Virus record (IMG/VR): IMGVR_UViG_3300001605_000015
Location: 1 to 64,000 of that record
DNA: 64,000 nt
Reading direction: 5' to 3' (one strand)
From: an uncultured virus (IMG/VR IMGVR_UViG_3300001605_000015)
Taxonomy: Duplodnaviria; Heunggongvirae; Uroviricota; Caudoviricetes
The notes beneath the pieces were generated by a model. That model made no database searches, was not told where the DNA came from, and was given only the letters and a program-made list of their open reading frames with translations. Position 1 is the stretch's first letter. Each line of letters begins with the position of its first letter. A program made the position numbers and the translations under genes. Shown here in pieces: positions 539 through 54,359 of this stretch.

Positions 539-626
539 TTTATAACGCTGTTATACGGGCGGGGGAAACTCCGCCCGTGTTCTACGTCCACCACGCCACA
601 CCTAACCCTGACAACGGAGAATACCA

Positions 627-2824: not shown

Positions 2825-4407
2825 ATGAGCACCAAAGGCCCTCGCGTCTATATCGACCGCACACTCATCCTCATGAAGCCCGAGGCTGTGCGCGGTGTGG
2901 ACCCCAACCCCAACCCGACCAATGACGCATTCCTATGCGGAAACGTGGAAGTGAGCGTTGACCCGCAACTGCTGGAACGTGACGTGAATCGTCCGTCTTT
3001 CAGCCCGTGGGCAAACGAAGTTGGTCGCAAGATCATGCGTCTTTCGTTCACTCACGAAATCAAAGGCGCTGGCAATCTGACTTCGCGTCCGAAACTCGGC
3101 GCACTGTTGGCTGCTTGCCACATGCGCGAAGTGCTTGTTACGGCAGGTGCCGCAAGCCAGATCGAAACTCCTGCTGTTGTTGGTCCGATCATCGGGCCTT
3201 CTGTCATTTGGGATAAGACGGCTGCGCCCACGCAGCGTTTCGGTTCCTACCTGATCCGAGTTGTCGAAGGCGGCGCATCGGGGGTGGCAAAGATGCAGGT
3301 CTTCCGCTGGAACCAATCGGATCAGGACAACACCGTTCTGATGAACACGCGGAATCAGGCTGTGACGAATTTCAGTTCGAACACGGTTATTGCGCTTGAT
3401 GACTCCGACGAGACTGCGCTTGAGTTCAGCATTTCCGGCACTCCTGTAGCGGGCGATACCGTCTACGCAGTCGTTGGCGGTCATGTGTTCAAGCACGTTG
3501 TAACCGCAGCGCAGGCTGGCGGCGCAACTCCTGCAAACGCAATCGCTGCCTCTGTTTCGGCCCTGATCGACGCGCATCCGCTTATGGCGGCTTCCGTTAC
3601 CGATAACGTGGTGACTGTTACTTTCGTTGGTGACGCGGCTGCGGTCACTGTCACCAGCGCCACCACGGCTGTTCCGCTTGGTGACTCTGGTGCAGAGCTT
3701 ACCCCTGTGTGGGTCGGAAACCTCGTCAAAGGTCAGATGTGGGTCGTTCAGCTTTACGAACAGGGTTATACCTACCTGCCTTCGTCGGATGATACCGACA
3801 TCNGANANNACTNACCCTTTACACCTATATCGGCGGTCAGCTTTATCGCATGACTGCGGCTATCGGGACCGTGACCTTTACTGGCACGGCAGGGGAATAC
3901 GGTTCGGCTCAGTTTGAGTTTGTCGGCAACTATGTCGAACCTACGCAAGAGCCGCTGCCGCGCACTCCGATCTACGAACTGTCGCGGCCTCCGAAGGTTG
4001 AGCTTGCTCAGATGTCTATCCGTGGCGACCGAGACTTCTGCGCAGAAAGCTTCACGATCACCTACGGCAACGAAATCAATGAGCGCCTCTGCATCAACGC
4101 AGCAGATGGTTATTCCGGCTCGGAGATTTCGGATCGCACTCCGACCATGACGGTCAACCCCGAAGGCTCTCTGGAAGTCTACACGAACATGTGGGGCGAC
4201 TTCTCGAAAGGCGAAGAGGTTCCTGTTCACCTTCGCGTCGGTTCGGTGCTTGGTAACATGGTTCGCTTCTATGCGGACAATGCAACCTATACTGGCATCG
4301 CCATCTCGGATCGGAACAATACGCAGGTCATGGAGCCGACCTTCCAGCTTAACGGCCTGTCTGCATACGGCGACGATGAACTTCGCGTCGTGTTCCCGAT
4401 TGCCTGA
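2825..4407 (+). CDS. Major tail tube protein; one gene split into ORFs 2825-3853 and 3850-4407 by an N-containing region at ~3803-3813
   Basis: 'SFTHEIKGAG..RPKLGALLAAC' N-terminus and 'ITYGNEINER...ISDRTPTMTVNPE...GSVLGN...GDDEL' C-terminus fit one tube protein. The frame break is adjacent to Ns. Confidence 0.8.
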
Positions 4408-22458: not shown

Positions 22459-23058
22459 ATGACCGGACCCAGCCCACAGAACTTAAAAAACCTTGCCGCA
22501 TTCATAAGAGATGCAGCTACCATAGGAACCGCCGTATCGGTAGTAATGGGTTTTTTGTTTTGGGTAGTAATAACTCTATGGGGAGCGCAGTTAGCCAACC
22601 ATGCCACAGAGATTCTACGGCTTGATAGGCTGGCTACACAGGAGGATGTGCAGGAGCTTTCTCAACGTGTCGATGCTCTTTCCGAACGAGTGAGCGGACT
22701 AGCTGGTGATCAACGTATCGCCATTGTTGATCTTTCAAGAAGTTTTGTGCGTTCGCCTGTTCGCCCCGGTGGCGACGTTGACGCAGTTATCTATGCCATG
22801 AGAACCGAGCGCGGCAGTTCTTGTATTATTACACGAGCCGCAACTATTTTCGAAACAGAAAGCGGGCTTCGCGTTCCCGGTCCTGAGCGATCTGCGGCTG
22901 GTCAGCTTCCTGCTTCCATGACACGTCTTCGTTTTCAATATCCTGTTCCAGAACTACCCCCCGGAAGAACGGGTGTGTGGATGGTCGGAACCTACGACTG
23001 CCCGTGGGGTCCAGTCGTTGAAGAACAAGGTCCGCTTATCTTTATGATGGAGAGTTGA
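22459..23058 (+). CDS. Membrane-anchored hypothetical protein (lysis region; antiholin-like topology possible)
   Basis: One N-terminal TM segment, a coiled coil and a two-Cys soluble domain. Confidence 0.6.
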   Translation: MTGPSPQNLKNLAAFIRDAATIGTAVSVVMGFLFWVVITLWGAQLANHATEILRLDRLATQEDVQELSQRVDALSERVSGLAGDQRIAIVDLSRSFVRSPVRPGGDVDAVIYAMRTERGSSCIITRAATIFETESGLRVPGPERSAAGQLPASMTRLRFQYPVPELPPGRTGVWMVGTYDCPWGPVVEEQGPLIFMMES

Positions 23059-23589
23059 ATGAACCTCTACGAAGCTACCCGTGAACTGCATCACTCGGCA
23101 GAGCAGCATCCGCTTGCTAAGTCTATGATGGACGGTTCAATAACTGAGCAAGCGTGGTGTGATTGGTTATACGCAATGTGGGCGGTGCATTCTGCCATCG
23201 ACATTAGCGTTCCTGAGTGTGTGCGGCGGGCAGCTTCGCTACAGCAAGACATGATGGACATGCTACCTGTTTCGCCGTTTCGATCATCCGCAGCCGTTTC
23301 TTTTGCAAGAACTCTTGATAACCCCATCGCTATAGGCGGTGCCGCCTATATCTTTATCGGCGCACATCGTCGCGGTGGCAGGGTTATCAAAAAAGCGATG
23401 GAGGACGCAGGTCGCGGTCTTCCAAACAGCCATACTGTGTTCGAAGACAACCAAGCGTCTGAGTTGTTTGTTCGGAACCTTCGTAACTACCCCGACTTGG
23501 CGATGGGAGCTAAACGGGCTTTTGCCGCAGTCGTTGCTATAATGGACGAAATACACCAGCGGAACGCACAGTCTAATCTACTTCTATAA
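23059..23589 (+). CDS. Heme oxygenase-like protein
   Basis: 'LYEATRELHHSAE' (proximal His helix), 'L.QD', 'AYIFIGAHRRGGRVI' (distal GG helix), 'AKRAF'. Confidence 0.65.
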   Translation: MNLYEATRELHHSAEQHPLAKSMMDGSITEQAWCDWLYAMWAVHSAIDISVPECVRRAASLQQDMMDMLPVSPFRSSAAVSFARTLDNPIAIGGAAYIFIGAHRRGGRVIKKAMEDAGRGLPNSHTVFEDNQASELFVRNLRNYPDLAMGAKRAFAAVVAIMDEIHQRNAQSNLLL

Positions 23590-23615
23590 CCCGGTTATAG
23601 CCAAAGGGAAATGCT

Positions 23616-23858
23616 ATGCAGAAGTGGAAATCTTACGTCAACATTACGTCGCTTGCTTGGTGGGGGGGCATATTCGCTATTGTTCTCGGCGTTCTTGGTA
23701 TTGTCATGCCTGAGAGCTATGCTGTTACTGAGGTTGGGAAGCTAGTCATGCTTCTGATCGGCGGCAGCGAACATTCGTCCCCCGGTATGATGATAGCCTT
23801 CGGCATGGGTGTTATCGGTATTCGGGCCAAGCTTGAAAGGAAGGAATGGGATGTTTAA
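23616..23858 (+). CDS. Putative holin
   Basis: 80 aa, 2-3 hydrophobic segments, charged C-terminus, upstream of spanins. Confidence 0.6.
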   Translation: MQKWKSYVNITSLAWWGGIFAIVLGVLGIVMPESYAVTEVGKLVMLLIGGSEHSSPGMMIAFGMGVIGIRAKLERKEWDV

Positions 23859-24156
23859 TATCGACCTATCGTGGATCATGGGCGGTGTAGTCGCTTTGGT
23901 CACACTGATTGGCGGTTGGCTTCGCGTCCGATCTGCCAATAAACAAGGAATCGAACAAGGCCGCAACGAAATCATCAAAAAGGTGGAGAAAGCCGATGCA
24001 CAACGCGCAAGTGACATCAGACAACGAGTGGAAGCCGCTAAGCAGCGTAGTGAAGAAAATCCTGCTGGCGACGGTGGCGACAATGGGGCTGAGCGGGTGC
24101 GAAGCAGCAAGAAACCTGCTAAGCCCGCCCGCACAAGTCGCGGCTATCGAGACTGA
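23851..24156 (+). CDS. i-spanin (Rz-like)
   Basis: N-terminal TM segment followed by coiled coil; AAGGA RBS. Confidence 0.65.
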   Translation: MFNIDLSWIMGGVVALVTLIGGWLRVRSANKQGIEQGRNEIIKKVEKADAQRASDIRQRVEAAKQRSEENPAGDGGDNGAERVRSSKKPAKPARTSRGYRD

Positions 24157-24292
24157 ACAAGCTCTTTGCGAGTCTTGGCGAGACTCTCTTCCTTCTCGTT
24201 CCAACGCAGATACAGAGCAAACACAGGACGAAATCGAGAACGCCTACAACGTGTTTCTCGCCGCATGTCCGGGCTACGAACTTCCGTTCTGA
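24050..24292 (+). CDS. o-spanin (Rz1-like lipoprotein) overlapping the i-spanin
   Basis: GTG start gives 'MKKILLATVATMGLSGC' signal peptide with LSGC lipobox. Confidence 0.7.
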   Translation: MKKILLATVATMGLSGCEAARNLLSPPAQVAAIETEQALCESWRDSLPSRSNADTEQTQDEIENAYNVFLAACPGYELPF

Positions 24293-24314
24293 CAAAGGTT
24301 GTAAATGAATGTAG

Positions 24315-24343
24315 AAGCCCTGCGTTTTTCGTGGGGCTTTTTT
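24315..24343 (+). terminator. Intrinsic terminator ending the late/lysis unit
   Basis: AAGCCCTGCG-loop-CGTGGGGCTT plus T run. Confidence 0.8.
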
Positions 24344-24369
24344 CATGAAAAAAATCTTTGATAACCTTA

Positions 24370-24397
24370 TTGACAAAAAAGTCTGATGCTGTATATT
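24370..24397 (+). promoter_or_regulatory. Sigma70-like promoter of the candidate sRNA
   Basis: TTGACA-16-TATATT. Confidence 0.65.
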
Positions 24398-24403
24398 GGC
24401 ATT

Positions 24404-24496
24404 GTGGTTGACGTGGATACTCGCTGGTTTCCTCTGGCAGAGCTAAACGCGGGATTGGTCTACATTACAAGTAGGCAGTCCCGCGTTTTCTACTTT
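24404..24496 (+). ncRNA. Candidate trans-acting small RNA (~90 nt) with 5' GUGGUU seed
   Basis: Own promoter; long 3' hairpin 24445-24488 followed by TCTACTTT; 5' end complementary to the AACCAC leader motif. Confidence 0.55.
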
Positions 24497-24522
24497 CAAT
24501 CGGTGATCTTCTTCGATATACT
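24494..24522 (+). promoter_or_regulatory. Sigma70-like promoter for the AAA ATPase
   Basis: TTTCAA-17-TATACT, then AACCACGGAG leader. Confidence 0.55.
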
Positions 24523-24555
24523 CGGATCACCTATCGTTATAACCACGGAGCTATC

Positions 24556-26283
24556 ATGCAGACCGACGAACTTACGTCTATGGACAATCTGCGACGGCAG
24601 ATCGACATTACCACGCGGGCGAGTATCGGCATCATTGCCATTCGCAGTCCCGTCACCGAGGTATTTCGCGTCGTAGAGACCATCTATCTTTCCGCCAAGG
24701 CCAATCAATCCGCGTTCCGTATGTGGTCGATGCTTCACGGCTGGGCTGCTTACGAAGAGGACGTTGTAGCCGACTTGCTTGCTACGATGGACGGTGACGA
24801 TGACAAGCTTTTCAATCCTATCAAGCCGCTTGTGACGCATCGCAATACCATTGCATATCTGCAAGCGTTTGAGGCTATCTTTTCGGATGACGTGGAGCGC
24901 CGCGACTTCCCTGACGATTGCTTCTACGCCATGATCGACGCGCATCACTACTTCGAAGAGCCGGGTATGCAAGCGGCTATCCGGCGACAGGCGCAACGGG
25001 CCTATGACAGCGATCAGCGTATCTTTATCGTGCTGCCAGAGACAGCCGAAATCCCCGATGCTGTTGCTCCGTATCTGCATATCATCGAATACGAGTATCC
25101 GAAGCTTTCCGAGCTTTCGCAGGTGCTTTCCATGATGATCGACAATCTCGAAGAGCATCTGCAACCAGAGCTTGACGACGAGATGCTTCGGGTTATCGGT
25201 CAGAACGCACTCGGTATGACCAAAACAGCTTTCGAGAATGCCGTCGCGCTTTCTATTACCGACTGGTATCAGGACGCGGGTTCCGACTCTAATAACCGTG
25301 TTACATTCGATCACATTTGCTCGTGGATACGGAAATACAAAACGGAAGCCTTGCGCAAAACCGAGGTTCTGGAATTGCAAGAGTCCTTGCCTGTCGATCA
25401 GATCGGCGGCTTGCAAAGCTACAAGCAATGGATGGAAATGCGCAAACGAACGTATGAGCCTGCGGCCATTGCACGAGGCATCACCCCATCGCGGGGCGTT
25501 CTTGTTTGCGGCGTTCCCGGCACTGGTAAATCGCTTATCGCTAAGGCCGCAGGAGCGCAGCTTGCCTTGCCCGTTGTTCGCTTCGACATTGGTCGGGTCT
25601 TCGGCGCATACGTTGGTCAATCTGAGGGACGTATGCGAAGCGTCCTAAAACTGCTTGATGCCATGTCGCCTTTGGTGCTTATGGTCGATGAGGTCGATAA
25701 GGGCTTTGCCGGAACGTCTCGCGGCGGTTCCAATGACGGCGGCACGTCTATGCGTGTGTTCGGCACATTCCTTACATGGATGCAGGAGCGCAACCAAAAG
25801 GAGCGGCCAGTCTTCCTTGTGTTCACCGCAAACCGCGTTCAGGGATTGCCCCCAGAGCTTATGCGCAAGGGCCGTCTGGACGAGCTTTGGGCCGTCAACT
25901 CGCCTAACGATGACGAGCGGATTGAGATTATCCGCATTCATGCCAAGAAGCGAAAGCTTTCCATCGCAGAGAGCGATCTTCCTTTGCTTGTGCAGCATTC
26001 GGATGGTCTTGTCGGCTCGGAAATCGAGTCTCTGGTCGAACAATGCCTTGTTCGTGCTTACATGAGCGACAGTAAGGCACTCACGGTCAAGGACTTCCTC
26101 AAGGAACGGCAATACCTGAAACCGTTGCGCGAAAGCTTCGCGGAGGACTTCAAAGCAATCGAGGATTGGGGCAATACCCATGCTCGTCTCGCCTCTGCAC
26201 CCGTGGAAGCAAAAAACACTCCGCGTATCAAGCCTGTCAAGAAAGCCGGGGTTGTGCGCAAGGGTCCACGGTCGCTACACTAA
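24556..26283 (+). CDS. Ycf46-like AAA+ ATPase
   Basis: Walker A GVPGTGKS, Walker B LMVDEVDK, 'FGTFLTWMQE', SRH 'TANRVQGLPPELMRKGRLDE'. Confidence 0.9.
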   Translation: MQTDELTSMDNLRRQIDITTRASIGIIAIRSPVTEVFRVVETIYLSAKANQSAFRMWSMLHGWAAYEEDVVADLLATMDGDDDKLFNPIKPLVTHRNTIAYLQAFEAIFSDDVERRDFPDDCFYAMIDAHHYFEEPGMQAAIRRQAQRAYDSDQRIFIVLPETAEIPDAVAPYLHIIEYEYPKLSELSQVLSMMIDNLEEHLQPELDDEMLRVIGQNALGMTKTAFENAVALSITDWYQDAGSDSNNRVTFDHICSWIRKYKTEALRKTEVLELQESLPVDQIGGLQSYKQWMEMRKRTYEPAAIARGITPSRGVLVCGVPGTGKSLIAKAAGAQLALPVVRFDIGRVFGAYVGQSEGRMRSVLKLLDAMSPLVLMVDEVDKGFAGTSRGGSNDGGTSMRVFGTFLTWMQERNQKERPVFLVFTANRVQGLPPELMRKGRLDELWAVNSPNDDERIEIIRIHAKKRKLSIAESDLPLLVQHSDGLVGSEIESLVEQCLVRAYMSDSKALTVKDFLKERQYLKPLRESFAEDFKAIEDWGNTHARLASAPVEAKNTPRIKPVKKAGVVRKGPRSLH

Positions 26284-26310
26284 TAACACGGTTATACGCA
26301 GGGAGCAGTT

Positions 26311-26955
26311 ATGCCTTTAATTGAGTATTGCACAGGATCAGACAGCTTTTCGGCTAGGGGGTCTACCCCTAGTCGGAGCGTCTCTTTAACAGCCTTGGTC
26401 TATAACACTAGGTCTGGCTTTTTCGAAAACCCTCGGTCACTGACTAACGGCGGCGACGTTTGCAAAGTGGACAAGGTTCACAAAGCTATGCCTGCGTCCA
26501 CTGTTCTAGCGCAATCGCCGGGAAACTGGTTCTACTATCGTACAGAGGTTCGCAGCGGTTCCCTATGGGCATTCGAGCTAAAGCGGCGCACTGGCGGGCC
26601 GTTTGCTTTCGAAACCGAGATGCTTCTTGTTCGCTTCTATCTCAAAGCACCTTTATATCGGGTAAGAATTTTCTTGCCTGATCATCCGTTTGCTAACGTA
26701 AGCGAGCTTGACTTTGTTTGGAACGCTCAGCGTATCCGAACGCACGATCAGCTAAGTCCTGACGAGCTAAACGCTTTCAAAAAGCTGACTGGCGAAACCA
26801 GCGAATTTGTCGTTGACGTTACGCAGCAGGACGAAGAGCTTCCATCTTGGAGCTTCACCGAAATGGAAAAAGCGGCTCCCAAAACCAAGAAGCTTGTCAA
26901 ATCCAAAGACAAGACGCCTCTGGCTATCAACAGAGTCAAAAAGCTTCGACTGTAA
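26311..26955 (+). CDS. Hypothetical protein
   Basis: GGGAG RBS; 214 aa. Confidence 0.7.
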   Translation: MPLIEYCTGSDSFSARGSTPSRSVSLTALVYNTRSGFFENPRSLTNGGDVCKVDKVHKAMPASTVLAQSPGNWFYYRTEVRSGSLWAFELKRRTGGPFAFETEMLLVRFYLKAPLYRVRIFLPDHPFANVSELDFVWNAQRIRTHDQLSPDELNAFKKLTGETSEFVVDVTQQDEELPSWSFTEMEKAAPKTKKLVKSKDKTPLAINRVKKLRL

Positions 26956-26972
26956 GGAAACCTCGGCTTGCC

Positions 26973-27001
26973 TTGCAATGATTACTCGGGTAAGCTATTC
27001 T
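26973..27001 (+). promoter_or_regulatory. Sigma70-like promoter
   Basis: TTGCAA-17-TATTCT, followed by AACCAC leader. Confidence 0.6.
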
Positions 27002-27912: not shown

Positions 27913-27988
27913 GGGAGTGTAGCTCAGCGGTTAGAGCTGTCCGCTCATAACGGATAGGTCGGGGGTTCAAATCCCTCCACTCCCACCA
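27913..27988 (+). tRNA. tRNA with CAT anticodon (probably Ile2, otherwise Met)
   Basis: Acceptor GGGAGTG/CACTCCC, D arm GCTC..GAGC, anticodon loop CT-CAT-AA, T loop TTCAAAT, encoded CCA. Confidence 0.95.
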
Positions 27989-47158: not shown

Positions 47159-47186
47159 TTGACAAGCACCCACCTTATCTTATACT
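47159..47186 (+). promoter_or_regulatory. Sigma70-like promoter
   Basis: TTGACA-16-TATACT. Confidence 0.65.
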
Positions 47187-49075: not shown

Positions 49076-50407
49076 ATGTATGACGACTATCCTGATAGCA
49101 CTAGCTATCAAAATCCGCACGATTCCTTCAAAGGTATTCACGAGGTAACTTCGGCTTCCTCTCCCGGTGTGACGTATTCCGTCAATCTCGACACTGGCGA
49201 ATGCTCTTGCCAACACGGCAAGCCTTGGACGTGGGTTTCTTCAAAGCACAAGTGGGTCAAAGCAAACTGGTGCAGTCATAAGATGCGGGCTGTTGCGTCC
49301 GTTATTGACGCCATGCCAAAAGGTATTGAGCGGCAAACCGCACAAGCCGCCTATAACAAGTTACTAGGCGAACGCTACATCATCTGGGAAAGCGTATCGG
49401 CCTTTCACAAGGAACTGCGGCGCGGGGATCGGGAAAAAGCCTGTTATTGGGCGCTAAGCGTTGCTGCGCATCGCGGTCTATCCGGCGTGGCCCGTTACAT
49501 GCTAAACATCCTTTTCGAAGAAAGCCGCGACCTTAGCTTGTATCTTCGTCTCATTCGTCTTTGCGAAAAGGGTAGCAAAGTAACGTATGACGAGGTAATG
49601 ACAGCGGTGCGTCTATTCTGCATTGCGCCAAAAAAATGGGAGCTTGAGCCTCGTCTCGAAATCTTTCTTAACGAGATGCGCGGCTACAAAGCACTAGCCA
49701 AGGACTATACCTACGAAGTTGCCAAAGGCAGCGATATTATCGACAATAGGCACAACGCAACTATCGAAAAAGCTTTGATAGAGGGCCTGCTTCGCGGCGA
49801 TCCCGTCATGGTGCAATACGGCCTCAAAGGTCTTTGGAAATCCAAAGCGCCGGGAGGTATCAAAGAGCTTCGCATCCAGTCTTTCAATATCCTTACGGAC
49901 GCACTCAATCAGGAAGGTCCGTTTGCGAAAGGTATCGGGTTTCAATACGACGAGGAATACGCATTCAAGCTGCATGAGTTAATCATGCGGCGTTATACTA
50001 CCTTCGGGGATATGGGCTACCATGAGCTAAACGCGCTCTGCGATGCCCTCACGGGGGAGCGTTACCCTAGCGGGGAGCACCTAACCCCAGCCAATACAGC
50101 GAGGCTTATAAGCACGTCTCCGACGCCCTACGCACCGCCTCTTGGAGCGGTTCGGACCATACCACTATACGCACTGGACAACCACAATCACCGTGGCAAG
50201 CACCTCATGCGCAAATGGGGCGCCACCGAATTGCTTCCCGGTGCGGAGCAGACAAACTTGGACTTTCGCTGGTGCGGCGCTTACTTCGGTGTTGCATGGC
50301 GTATGCTTGCCTACAAACAGCACGGAAGTTGCGAAGTTGCTTGGAAGGACGTAAAGTGGAACCAAGTGCCTTGGCTCTATAAGCACGTCAACCAAATGTT
50401 CTACTGA
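49076..50407 (+). CDS. SWIM zinc finger fused to MgsA/RarA C-terminal-like domain
   Basis: 'YSVNL..GECSC...WCSH' and 'SAFHKELRRGD.EKACYWA...NILFEE'. Confidence 0.6.
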   Translation: MYDDYPDSTSYQNPHDSFKGIHEVTSASSPGVTYSVNLDTGECSCQHGKPWTWVSSKHKWVKANWCSHKMRAVASVIDAMPKGIERQTAQAAYNKLLGERYIIWESVSAFHKELRRGDREKACYWALSVAAHRGLSGVARYMLNILFEESRDLSLYLRLIRLCEKGSKVTYDEVMTAVRLFCIAPKKWELEPRLEIFLNEMRGYKALAKDYTYEVAKGSDIIDNRHNATIEKALIEGLLRGDPVMVQYGLKGLWKSKAPGGIKELRIQSFNILTDALNQEGPFAKGIGFQYDEEYAFKLHELIMRRYTTFGDMGYHELNALCDALTGERYPSGEHLTPANTARLISTSPTPYAPPLGAVRTIPLYALDNHNHRGKHLMRKWGATELLPGAEQTNLDFRWCGAYFGVAWRMLAYKQHGSCEVAWKDVKWNQVPWLYKHVNQMFY

Positions 50408-50413
50408 GGCACA

Positions 50414-50905
50414 ATGGAAGAAGCAACTCAGCACAGGTTTGTTATTGACGAAAACGAAGTGGTCGTGGATAACCTCGCCTACTTCGTTTACAGCAGTTTG
50501 CAAACCCAAAAATGGCTAGACGACGATAGGTTCGCGTTCATGCTGAACCGGGTTTTTCGAGAGTATCTTCTGCCCGGATCAGACGAAGCAGCCCTATATA
50601 GACCACTCTCTATAACTTGGTTATTGCGGACCCCTGATGCAAAAGCGGCGCACTACCTTCAAGAAAAATGGGGAACACGCTACGGCCTTGAGTTATCATG
50701 CGACCAGCTTACCGATGGAACATTCTCTTGCAGGGTTTCCAAAACGGTTGGCGAAACCATCTATACGGTTTCTAGTGACGAGCAGAGCGATAACGAAACA
50801 ATAGCGTGTCTGCTTGCCCTTTCCGCTGCTTGCCTAGAGTGGAGCACGATACAACGAACTGATCAATACAACCAAGCTACGATAGCCTCTGCAACCACGG
50901 AGTAG
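50414..50905 (+). CDS. Hypothetical protein
   Basis: GAGG RBS; packed in operon. Confidence 0.65.
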   Translation: MEEATQHRFVIDENEVVVDNLAYFVYSSLQTQKWLDDDRFAFMLNRVFREYLLPGSDEAALYRPLSITWLLRTPDAKAAHYLQEKWGTRYGLELSCDQLTDGTFSCRVSKTVGETIYTVSSDEQSDNETIACLLALSAACLEWSTIQRTDQYNQATIASATTE

Positions 50906-54286: not shown

Positions 54287-54359
54287 ACATGTAATTTCGG
54301 ATAGCGCGGACTGACCACCCGCGCTATTCTTTTCCTACCATCAACCACGGAGCTTAGAC

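Follow-up and report, generated by a model that had tools for sequence, protein, structure and literature searches.

The stretch of DNA analysed here (the window) covers positions 1-64000 of the viral record IMG/VR IMGVR_UViG_3300001605_000015, which is 90,183 bp long, has terminal repeats (405 bp) and is assigned to the Caudoviricetes. The window has a G+C content of 50.7%, and nearly all of its genes lie on the + strand. At 24370-24496, between a block of tail-fibre and other structural genes and a gene for an AAA ATPase, lies a short unit predicted to encode a small RNA (sRNA), the 5' end of which is complementary to the spacer that follows the phage's own major capsid gene. Coordinates are window positions on the + strand unless otherwise stated. 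Gene starts were taken from a home-made, crude caller, with no curated annotation, and both gene starts and transcription starts are predictions.

The unit begins downstream of an intrinsic terminator that closes the tail-fibre/structural block (24313-24345; hairpin at about 24313-24339, followed by a T run), and the open reading frames (ORFs) 5' of this terminator match tail fibre and tail assembly chaperone families. In line with a first-pass annotation of the window, made by a model from the letters alone, which had placed a terminator here, the hairpin and T run fold at -20.4 kcal/mol and none of 200 shuffled sequences folds as well. The promoter named in the same annotation, TTGACA-16-TATATT at 24370-24397, scores 11/12, as do only three promoters in the whole 90,183-bp genome, this one included; this promoter is of the sigma-70 type, and its -35 box is invariant across an alignment of eight sequences from relatives. 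G24404, the seventh base past the -10 box, is the predicted +1, from which an RNA of about 85-93 nucleotides (nt) would extend to the U-rich tail (24404-24496). The 93-nt form folds at -37.1 kcal/mol (z = -3.95; 0/200 shuffles), which bears out the proposed unit of about 90 nt with a long hairpin at 24445-24488; this hairpin and the U-rich tail behind it form the terminator (24445-24496), as judged from the fold and from a stem change in a relative described below. Both terminator hairpins were passed over by a simple scan because their loops are longer than 8 nt.

Within the predicted RNA, nt 1-9 are unpaired in both the minimum-energy and the centroid folds. They belong to a first putative antisense module, nt 1-17 (24404-24420; GUGGUUGACGUGGAUAC), which is complementary to window 577-594. 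A second module, nt 22-34 (24425-24437; UGGUUUCCU followed by CUGG), complements the region of the capsid gene's ribosome-binding site. Overlapping both is a candidate small hairpin, SL1 (24415-24432; GGAUAC, a 6-nt loop, GUUUCC), deduced from the fold of the nearest relative's RNA; its arms are identical in the two phages and its loop differs, so that the comparison provides no covariation, and SL1 is absent from the minimum-energy fold of the window RNA. The AAA ATPase gene follows at 24556-26283 (phrog_8638, E 1.6e-115), with the hexamer AACCAC, read in the sequence at 24541-24546, adjoining its GGAG ribosome-binding site. A second promoter that had been proposed for this gene at 24494-24522 fared less well: its -10 box (TATACT) is good, but its -35 box (TTCAAT) agrees at 3/6 positions and the promoter scan did not list it. 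Around the TATACT box, between the sRNA terminator and the ATPase leader, there is also an inverted repeat (GGTGATC-16 nt-GATCACC, 24502-24531), the fold of which is no better than that of shuffled sequences (z = -1.14).

Searches of the window with Rfam 15 at gathering thresholds matched only a transfer RNA (tRNA) at 27913-27985 and nothing at the sRNA, and the region 24340-24560, searched with E up to 10, gave six weak matches, which scored far below threshold and were without exception on the minus strand. There was accordingly no match to any Rfam family, including C4 antisense RNA, GcvB and RybB. GC skew at the unit gave no clear signal of an origin. With a promoter and a terminator of its own, a terminator upstream and no conserved ORF across the relatives compared, the unit has the make-up of an insulated sRNA gene, as had been suggested, and we consider it very likely that 24370-24496 is a real sRNA gene of the predicted kind.

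The phage is one of a clade of tailed phages with genomes of ~90 kb, the relatives of which include phages of Rhodobacter and Rhizobium. No cultured phage was matched when 23000-27000 was compared by megablast, and a scan of viral contigs with a single protein gave no relatives. Metagenome scanning with an ATPase alignment recovered distant relatives (29-43% identity among the best 80 loci), and a scan of viral contigs for exact patterns of the conserved sRNA blocks returned a single match, on L002, an 80-kb viral contig that is the nearest relative compared (ATPase 71% identical to that of the window). Closer ATPase relatives, P0002-P0013, were found in other collections (58-78% identity). 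Below, the window phage is genome G000, and the genomes of loci L002, L003, L005, L007 and L008 are G001, G002, G004, G005 and G007, respectively.

A homologous unit stands upstream of the L002 ATPase gene (L002:3840-3934), behind a different upstream gene, with the same -35 box and a -10 box. The blocks GUGGUUGA, GGAUAC, UGGUUUCCU and CUGG are common to the two RNAs, and the spacers between them have diverged. At the base of the terminator stem, ACGCGGGA/UCCCGCGU in one RNA corresponds to ACGCGGGG/CCCCGCGU in that of L002, a two-sided change from A-U to G-C. The unit was defined by a consensus-like promoter and an RNA of 70-95 nt, the 5' end of which is free and is followed by a single inner hairpin and by a terminator whose stem contains CGCGG/CCGCG. 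By eye, it is present in 9 of the 14 ATPase-upstream regions compared (the window, L002, L003, L004, L005, L007, L008, L009 and L338C), and it has no clear counterpart in the other five (L006, L010, L014, Agrobacterium phage JP1 and Rhodobacter phage RcKickapoo). Seven family members retain the CGCGG/CCGCG core. When six of the relatives were folded (L003, L004, L005, L007, L009 and L338C), four gave a free 5' end, an inner hairpin and a terminator, with z between -3.2 and -5.5. The 5' end of the L003 RNA pairs with the U tail, and the RNA of Rhizobium phage L338C has seven free bases between two hairpins. Across the family, each 5' part varies together with its target and the alignment of these parts is poor, so that a covariance model would rest mostly on the terminator. 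As far as sequence comparison goes, the predicted unit thus represents a family that lies upstream of the AAA ATPase gene in this clade.

These comparisons also bear on the possibility that the unit encodes a small protein, starting from the GUG at 24404 and using the frame 24404-24676. The open frame spans 90 codons in the window and 66 in L002, and the first residues of the two are similar. However, the ORFs that start from the 5' GUG have 90, 66, 15, 50, 60, 20 and 42 codons in the seven relatives, with G002 having no start codon, and in the window the frame runs across the terminator hairpin and into the ATPase gene. In addition, the GUG has no ribosome-binding site, since the bases upstream of it are those of the promoter. 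We therefore regard a protein product as extremely improbable.

To identify partners of the sRNA, each relative's genome was searched for long complements of the 5' part of its own RNA. Perfect complements of the 5' end were found in G005 (13 nt), G004 (17 nt) and G002 (12 nt), all of them starting at RNA nt 1 and all intergenic. These sites are syntenic, falling between a gene for a protein of ~320 amino acids and one for a protein of ~100 amino acids within the same run of gene sizes, and both the synteny and the homology of the flanking genes were confirmed. The window site lies at 577-594 on the late structural messenger RNA (mRNA) and precedes the ATG at 627 by 33-50 nt. The gene before it, the 3' part of which occupies 1-538, encodes the major capsid protein; its ORF starts at genome position 89342 and crosses the record ends. 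The predicted product (324 amino acids) is 74% identical to the capsid protein of the L002 genome, which matches PF05065 (36.2 bits, cut-off 24.2) and phrog_1623 (E 9.6e-85), and the counterpart gene in RcKickapoo is annotated as major capsid protein. The conserved gene of ~100 codons after the site (627-938) has homologues that follow the capsid gene in G001-G005 (36-63% identity to the window protein). Its product has no Pfam and no PHROG match, and the gene that comes next is annotated as a head-to-tail adaptor in RcKickapoo.

Pairing between the sRNA and the spacer after the capsid gene was scored in the seven genomes that hold both regions (G000-G005 and G007; G006 was left out as it has no capsid region). 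Counted from RNA nt 1, the duplexes comprise 16 pairs in the window (577-594) and, in the corresponding capsid-to-small-gene spacers, 19 in G001, 17 in G002, 16 in G003, 19 in G004 and 20 in G005. In the more distant G007 (ATPase 33% identical), there are 15 pairs from the predicted +1, with a 10-nt core that none of 200 shuffles reached. The six duplexes of G000-G005 lie 10-46 nt past the capsid stop codon and end 32-41 nt before the next start codon. In the window, the duplex consists of 14 Watson-Crick and 2 G.U pairs, with a U.C mismatch at nt 6 and a bulged U581, and has an energy of -23.1 kcal/mol. Thus, the first-pass annotation, which had suggested that the 5' end acts as an antisense seed, is supported in that the complementarity starts at the predicted +1 in 7/7 genomes; its proposed check of conservation and covariation in related phages turned up 15-20 pairs in all seven, directed to a site (581-594) that it had listed only as a side example.

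The RNAs and their sites change together. In an own-versus-other matrix for the six genomes G000-G005, the mean energy was -32.65 kcal/mol on the diagonal and -17.37 kcal/mol off it, and of the 720 permutations only one was as good, namely the identity, so that each RNA fits its own site best despite the divergence of the sequences. When nt 1-20 of each sRNA were scanned against its entire genome, the capsid-downstream site came first in five of seven genomes and third in G007; in the window phage it came second (-23.1 kcal/mol, against -24.3 for the best site). The complementarity to the capsid spacer and its covariation are features of the sequences themselves, and they lead us to regard the capsid-downstream site as probably the conserved partner of the sRNA.

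The surroundings of the site fall into two arrangements. One, seen in the window, G001 and G002, has a GC-rich hairpin after the capsid stop codon (555-578 in the window, directly after the stop), the target at or just after the 3' arm of this hairpin, and then a C/A-rich spacer that extends to the ribosome-binding site. In the other, that of G003, G004 and G005, a long hairpin holds the target in its 5' arm and loop. Among the other phages compared, the 15-nt match noted in G010 (L014) proved to be a palindrome at both places rather than an RNA-target pair, no spacer complementarity was seen in G009 (L010), and the whole RcKickapoo genome held no convincing complement of its capsid-downstream spacer. 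In G007, the first 9-10 nt of the RNA complement two more sites, at 74150 and 96181 of that genome; one of these extra sites covers the ribosome-binding region of the ATPase gene, echoing the AACCAC in the ATPase leader of the window.

At the DNA level alone, there is nothing here beyond two inverted copies of a sequence of 14-20 bp, which could also be copies of a site for protein binding or recombination. The position of the repeat speaks differently: its complementarity reaches only 0, 0, 0, 0, 1, 1 or 2 nt upstream of the predicted +1 in the seven genomes, and the promoter is therefore outside the repeat. Furthermore, where the copies depart internally from Watson-Crick complementarity, the position is in most cases a G.U, a pair that can form only with the RNAs in the orientation proposed here. 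Since the boundary falls at the transcription start and the differences are of this type, a feature of the DNA is disfavoured, and the fact that the genes between the copies are co-directional in all seven genomes argues against inversion. We consider this explanation very improbable.

It could also be argued that the unit acts in cis as a leader for the AAA ATPase gene, with a strong promoter and a terminator regulated by attenuation or antitermination, and that its complementarity to distant sites is incidental. The unit is in every case the immediate upstream neighbour of the ATPase gene, and stretches complementary to the ATPase start region occur in the upstream regions of L002 (8 nt), RcKickapoo (8 nt), L008 (9 nt), L007 (9 nt) and L009 (10 nt); moreover, the window and L002 RNAs pair with their own ATPase starts at -9.0 and -9.9 kcal/mol, the best value in each column. 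However, the full own-versus-other matrix for the ATPase start region displays no specificity (permutation p = 0.27), the ATPase-complementary piece of L007 and L009 lies upstream of the sRNA promoter, and the interval from the terminator to the ATPase gene contains an extra -10-like element, both in the window and in relatives. Above all, a cis-acting leader leaves the 15-20 covarying pairs 24 kb away unexplained, and we hold this possibility to be quite improbable. We note that the RNA box GGAUAC(C) is the reverse complement of GGUAUCC(U), which is found 5-13 nt before the ATPase start in L002 and RcKickapoo (L002:3851-3858 and L002:3986-3993; L152:1340-1347 and the RcKickapoo ATPase start region). 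In L004, GGUAUCC lies right before the ATPase ATG, and the window has only an imperfect version.

The second module of the sRNA points to the other end of the capsid cistron. Within nt 22-34 of the window RNA, there is a 9-nt perfect complement of genome positions 89332-89340, the ribosome-binding region of the capsid gene, which lies outside the window, and the CUGG of this module complements CCAG at genome 89326-89329. In L002, the RNA and its capsid leader are complementary for 10 nt, an additional U of the former facing an additional A of the latter, and in G004 the two are complementary for 9 nt by a different sequence. Ranked among all leaders for this module, the capsid leader comes 11th of 125 in G000, first of 98 in G001 and third of 38 in G004. 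As both ends of the capsid cistron are complemented, every conserved block of the RNA is accounted for in the window and L002. The complementarity to the capsid ribosome-binding site is thus present in three of the six genomes, and for the family as a whole it is suggestive of a second contact.

On balance, we lean towards reading 24370-24496 as the gene for a trans-acting antisense RNA of about 90 nt that pairs with the phage's own capsid operon. Several observations weigh against this. Primary pairing is weaker in the window phage than in any other family member and includes one mismatch, and the capsid spacer site of this phage trails an unrelated site by 1.2 kcal/mol in the genome-wide scan. 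The seven genomes are related, so that the covariation is one between lineages with few independent changes, and the region before the ATPase gene and the spacer after the capsid gene are not complementary to each other in the cultured phages RcKickapoo and L338C. Module 2 is absent from G002, G003 and G005, where the complementary runs are just 4-6 nt, and its permutation tests are weak (50/720 by run length and 18/720 by energy). The tail of the window sRNA, with four U, then C, A and C, then three U, is short and interrupted. The target site is clear of the start region of the ~100-codon gene, and, because it lies 33-50 nt upstream of the start codon, simple occlusion of the ribosome site fails to explain an effect on that gene. 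Finally, the sequencing runs listed with the stretch are four DNA runs of one study and no RNA runs.

The first-pass annotation had assigned a different main function to the same 5' end, in which the sRNA is a multi-target regulator whose GUGGUU pairs with AACCAC in about 19 leaders and shuts off early/middle translation. The observations behind this proposal stand. GUGGUU is the exact reverse complement of AACCAC, and AACCAC occurs in 19 of 128 leaders (-40..-1), compared with 1.63 expected, which makes it the second most enriched hexamer after ACGGAG. In the genome as a whole, there are 47 copies on the + strand (24.6 expected) and 19 on the - strand (19.5 expected), and the leader motif is strand-specific, with GTGGTT in none of the leaders. 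AACCAC ends 5-21 nt before the start codon and is followed by G in 12 of 20 copies, usually as GGAG. Seventeen of the 19 AACCAC leaders are in the window, with copies between 2804 and 63514 upstream of the genes that start at 2825, 24556, 27029, 30734, 38573, 49076, 50910, 52330, 54360, 55094, 56541, 58607, 59160, 60007, 60481, 63048 and 63533; the other two belong to genes 69235 and 84027, beyond the window. The L002 genome has the motif in 9 of 98 leaders (0.85 expected). With the leader that holds the primary target excluded, the counts are 19/123 for the window phage and 9/97 for the L002 genome, and in both AACCAC is the top hexamer composed of C and A only (19 versus at most 12 for others, overlapping ones, in the window phage; 9 versus at most 4 in L002's). 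The excess in the window phage is therefore one of this hexamer itself and is not explained by leaders that are merely abundant in C and A. All of the longer matches that had been pointed out are present as well (at 54341, 59980, 60454, 581-594, 55071, 57870 and 59984).

Additional complementarity on the sense strand is in keeping with a regulator of several genes. There are 12 complementary windows of 10 nt, compared with 3.0 for shuffled sRNAs, and only 4 of 500 shuffles gave as many. Two candidate secondary targets are perfect complements of 11 nt: one at 50384-50394, complementary to nt 2-12 and lying 20-30 nt upstream of the gene at 50414-50905, and one at 2814-2824, complementary to nt 20-30 and lying over the ribosome-binding site of the gene at 2825-3853. 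Six N characters fall across window 3803-3814, and the calls of the genes at 2825-3853 and 3850-4407 are unreliable. The conservation of GUGGUUGA in the window and L002 RNAs also fits a multi-target role. The suggestion to compare leader energies with those of shuffles gave a divided answer. By partition-function binding of the 5' 43 nt, AACCAC leaders of the window phage bind at -12.6 kcal/mol and the others at -8.3 kcal/mol (Mann-Whitney p = 1.6e-6), and none of 75 shuffled RNAs binds the AACCAC leaders as well. In the L002 genome, however, shuffles were as good in 42/60 cases for all leaders and in 17/60 for AACCAC leaders, and mean duplex energies against leaders were no better than those of shuffles in any of the seven genomes.

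The proposed regulon is also limited by the length of its pairing and by its distribution. Pairing with AACCAC amounts to 6 nt; the base past the motif fits in 8/20 copies, giving 7 nt, and the base facing A8 of the sRNA fits in 2/20. In four relatives with other 5' ends, the complement of the seed is scarce in leaders (1/116 in G005, 0/67 in G002, 1/41 in G003 and 1/25 in G006), and the enrichment in G004 (4/37 leaders) is equalled by other hexamers of C and A only. The leaders of G005 have a different C/A-rich motif around GGAG, and AACCAC therefore probably serves translation in its own right. With a pairing of 6-7 nt that is absent in four relatives, and with the capsid spacer as the target that covaries, we judge it unlikely that action on ~19 leaders is the main function of the sRNA. 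It is possible that the AACCAC leaders represent a lineage-specific, secondary addition of weaker targets in the window phage and L002's. The case illustrates how a striking leader motif can mislead, given that for this 5' end one single target is far better supported.

A further observation concerns the small-gene cluster in which several AACCAC leaders lie. Promoter-like cassettes at ~54300, 55030, 57830, 60420 and 63000 stand upstream of genes 54360, 55094, 57890, 60481 and 63048. They are made up of a TTGCGC-like box, 17-18 nt and TATTCT or TATACT, with the spacer filled by a GC-rich inverted repeat (GCGCGG...CCGCGC), and AACCAC follows 9-14 nt past the cassette. Alternatively, the cassettes may be terminator hairpins with T-rich tails.

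Returning to the antisense RNA that we propose for the capsid operon, host RNA polymerase would transcribe it from the near-consensus sigma-70 promoter, starting at G24404, and the intrinsic terminator would end it. Its free 5' end (nt 1-14/17) would then base-pair with the late structural mRNA at 577-594, and nt 22-34 with the ribosome-binding site of the capsid gene. By binding both ends of the capsid cistron, the sRNA could set the timing or amount of expression of the capsid and post-capsid genes. The likeliest effect would be repression or duplex-directed cleavage; at the spacer, possible actions include cleavage of the 16-20-bp duplex, interference with a standby or enhancer site, and an effect on termination or stability at the hairpin 3' of the capsid gene. 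In the lineage of the window phage, the 6-7-nt match to AACCAC in 19 leaders may add weaker targets. An extension of this scheme, which we think distinctly unlikely, is that the sRNA is a global timing switch that brackets the capsid cistron and acts on the ~19 AACCAC leaders, thereby coordinating the passage from early to late protein synthesis. The RNA would then be made from the strongest host-type promoter upon entry of the DNA, with its accumulation or titration driving the switch, and the phage would possess an internal sRNA regulon that co-evolves with its targets.

Base-pairing sRNAs are well studied in bacteria, and several known systems invite comparison. RybB and OmrA/B are sRNAs of enterobacteria with a 5' seed. 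Like them, the window sRNA would pair from nt 1, ahead of a hairpin and an intrinsic terminator, and one seed may serve several mRNAs. The single-stranded seed of the RybB type at the extreme 5' end is present, with nt 1-9 unpaired and pairing from nt 1 in 7/7 genomes. Unlike RybB and OmrA/B, to which it has no sequence relation, the sRNA and its main target would both be of the phage, and its U tail is short. GcvB directs a G/U-rich seed at C/A-rich translation enhancers. The 5' end of the window sRNA is likewise G/U-rich, its candidate AACCAC targets are C/A-rich and lie just upstream of ribosome-binding sites, and its primary site is in a C/A-rich spacer upstream of a start region; in contrast to GcvB, of which Rfam reveals no homologue here, action on many leaders is unsupported beyond two related phages. 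The c4 RNA of phages P1 and P7, for which Rfam holds the C4 family, is processed out of the transcript that also contains its target and regulates an antirepressor during lysogeny. As with c4, we would have a phage-encoded, trans-acting short RNA that uses short complementary segments on the phage's own mRNA to control downstream genes. The window sRNA would differ in having its own promoter and terminator, in pairing by its 5' end and in being directed at the capsid operon from a distance of 24 kb.

Lambda OOP and P22 sar are cis-antisense phage RNAs. To these may be added aQ of lambda and PAK_P4as15, which are given as cis-antisense phage RNAs in the accessible part of a 2025 review (PMC12197685), a text in which, to the same extent, the word 'capsid' occurs 0 times. 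As in these four cases, the window sRNA would be a phage RNA that base-pairs to adjust when the phage's own genes are expressed, but they are transcribed opposite their targets, as far as the sources consulted describe them, whereas the window sRNA is encoded 24 kb from its site and on the same strand. Its complementarity is therefore expected to be short and kept by co-evolution, as observed. Phage-encoded trans-acting sRNAs that act on host functions have been described (bioRxiv 10.1101/2024.10.31.621285; PMC13502914, both as seen in excerpt). The window sRNA would resemble these excerpted cases in being trans-acting, base-pairing and carried by a phage, and would differ from them in that its conserved target is the phage's own structural operon. 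In the limited literature searched, parts of which were available as excerpts, we found no trans-encoded phage sRNA directed against the phage's own capsid operon. On the basis of sequence comparison, it seems reasonable to suggest that the unit represents a new family of trans-encoded phage antisense RNAs with the capsid operon of the same phage as conserved target. If expressed, it would provide a compact, conserved and naturally co-evolving RNA-target pair in ~90-kb phages, and with it a testable form of post-transcriptional control of virion stoichiometry or timing; the seven natural variants of seed and target might also serve as orthogonal regulator pairs.

Other recurrent elements were seen in these genomes. 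A palindrome, TATAAC-3/4 nt-GTTATA, lies at 541-555 of the window, between the capsid stop codon and the sRNA target, and recurs in intergenic leaders, being found upstream of genes 4478, 23616, 26311, 30734 and 60007 and, in genome coordinates, of 66957, 68830, 77297, 78687 and 87280. GGTTAT and GTTATA are enriched in leaders (11 each, compared with 2.3 and 2.4 expected), and the palindrome may act as an operator or as a promoter element, or may form a small RNA hairpin. In the relatives L004, L005, L007, L009 and RcKickapoo (L152:1455-1470), the element TGCTACAATCGATTGCA, an extended -10-like box with a palindrome, recurs before the ATPase gene as well as before many other genes and is enriched in leaders; in G003, for example, ACAATC is found in 8 of 42 leaders, compared with 0.5 expected. 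The other two promoters that score 11/12 are at window 47159-47186 and at genome 83707; the former is conserved in the L002 genome (G001 62046) and precedes a gene of 385 codons whose product has an N-terminus rich in lysine and alanine. Finally, a tRNA-Met gene (anticodon CAT) lies at 27913-27988, 1.6 kb downstream of the ATPase gene.

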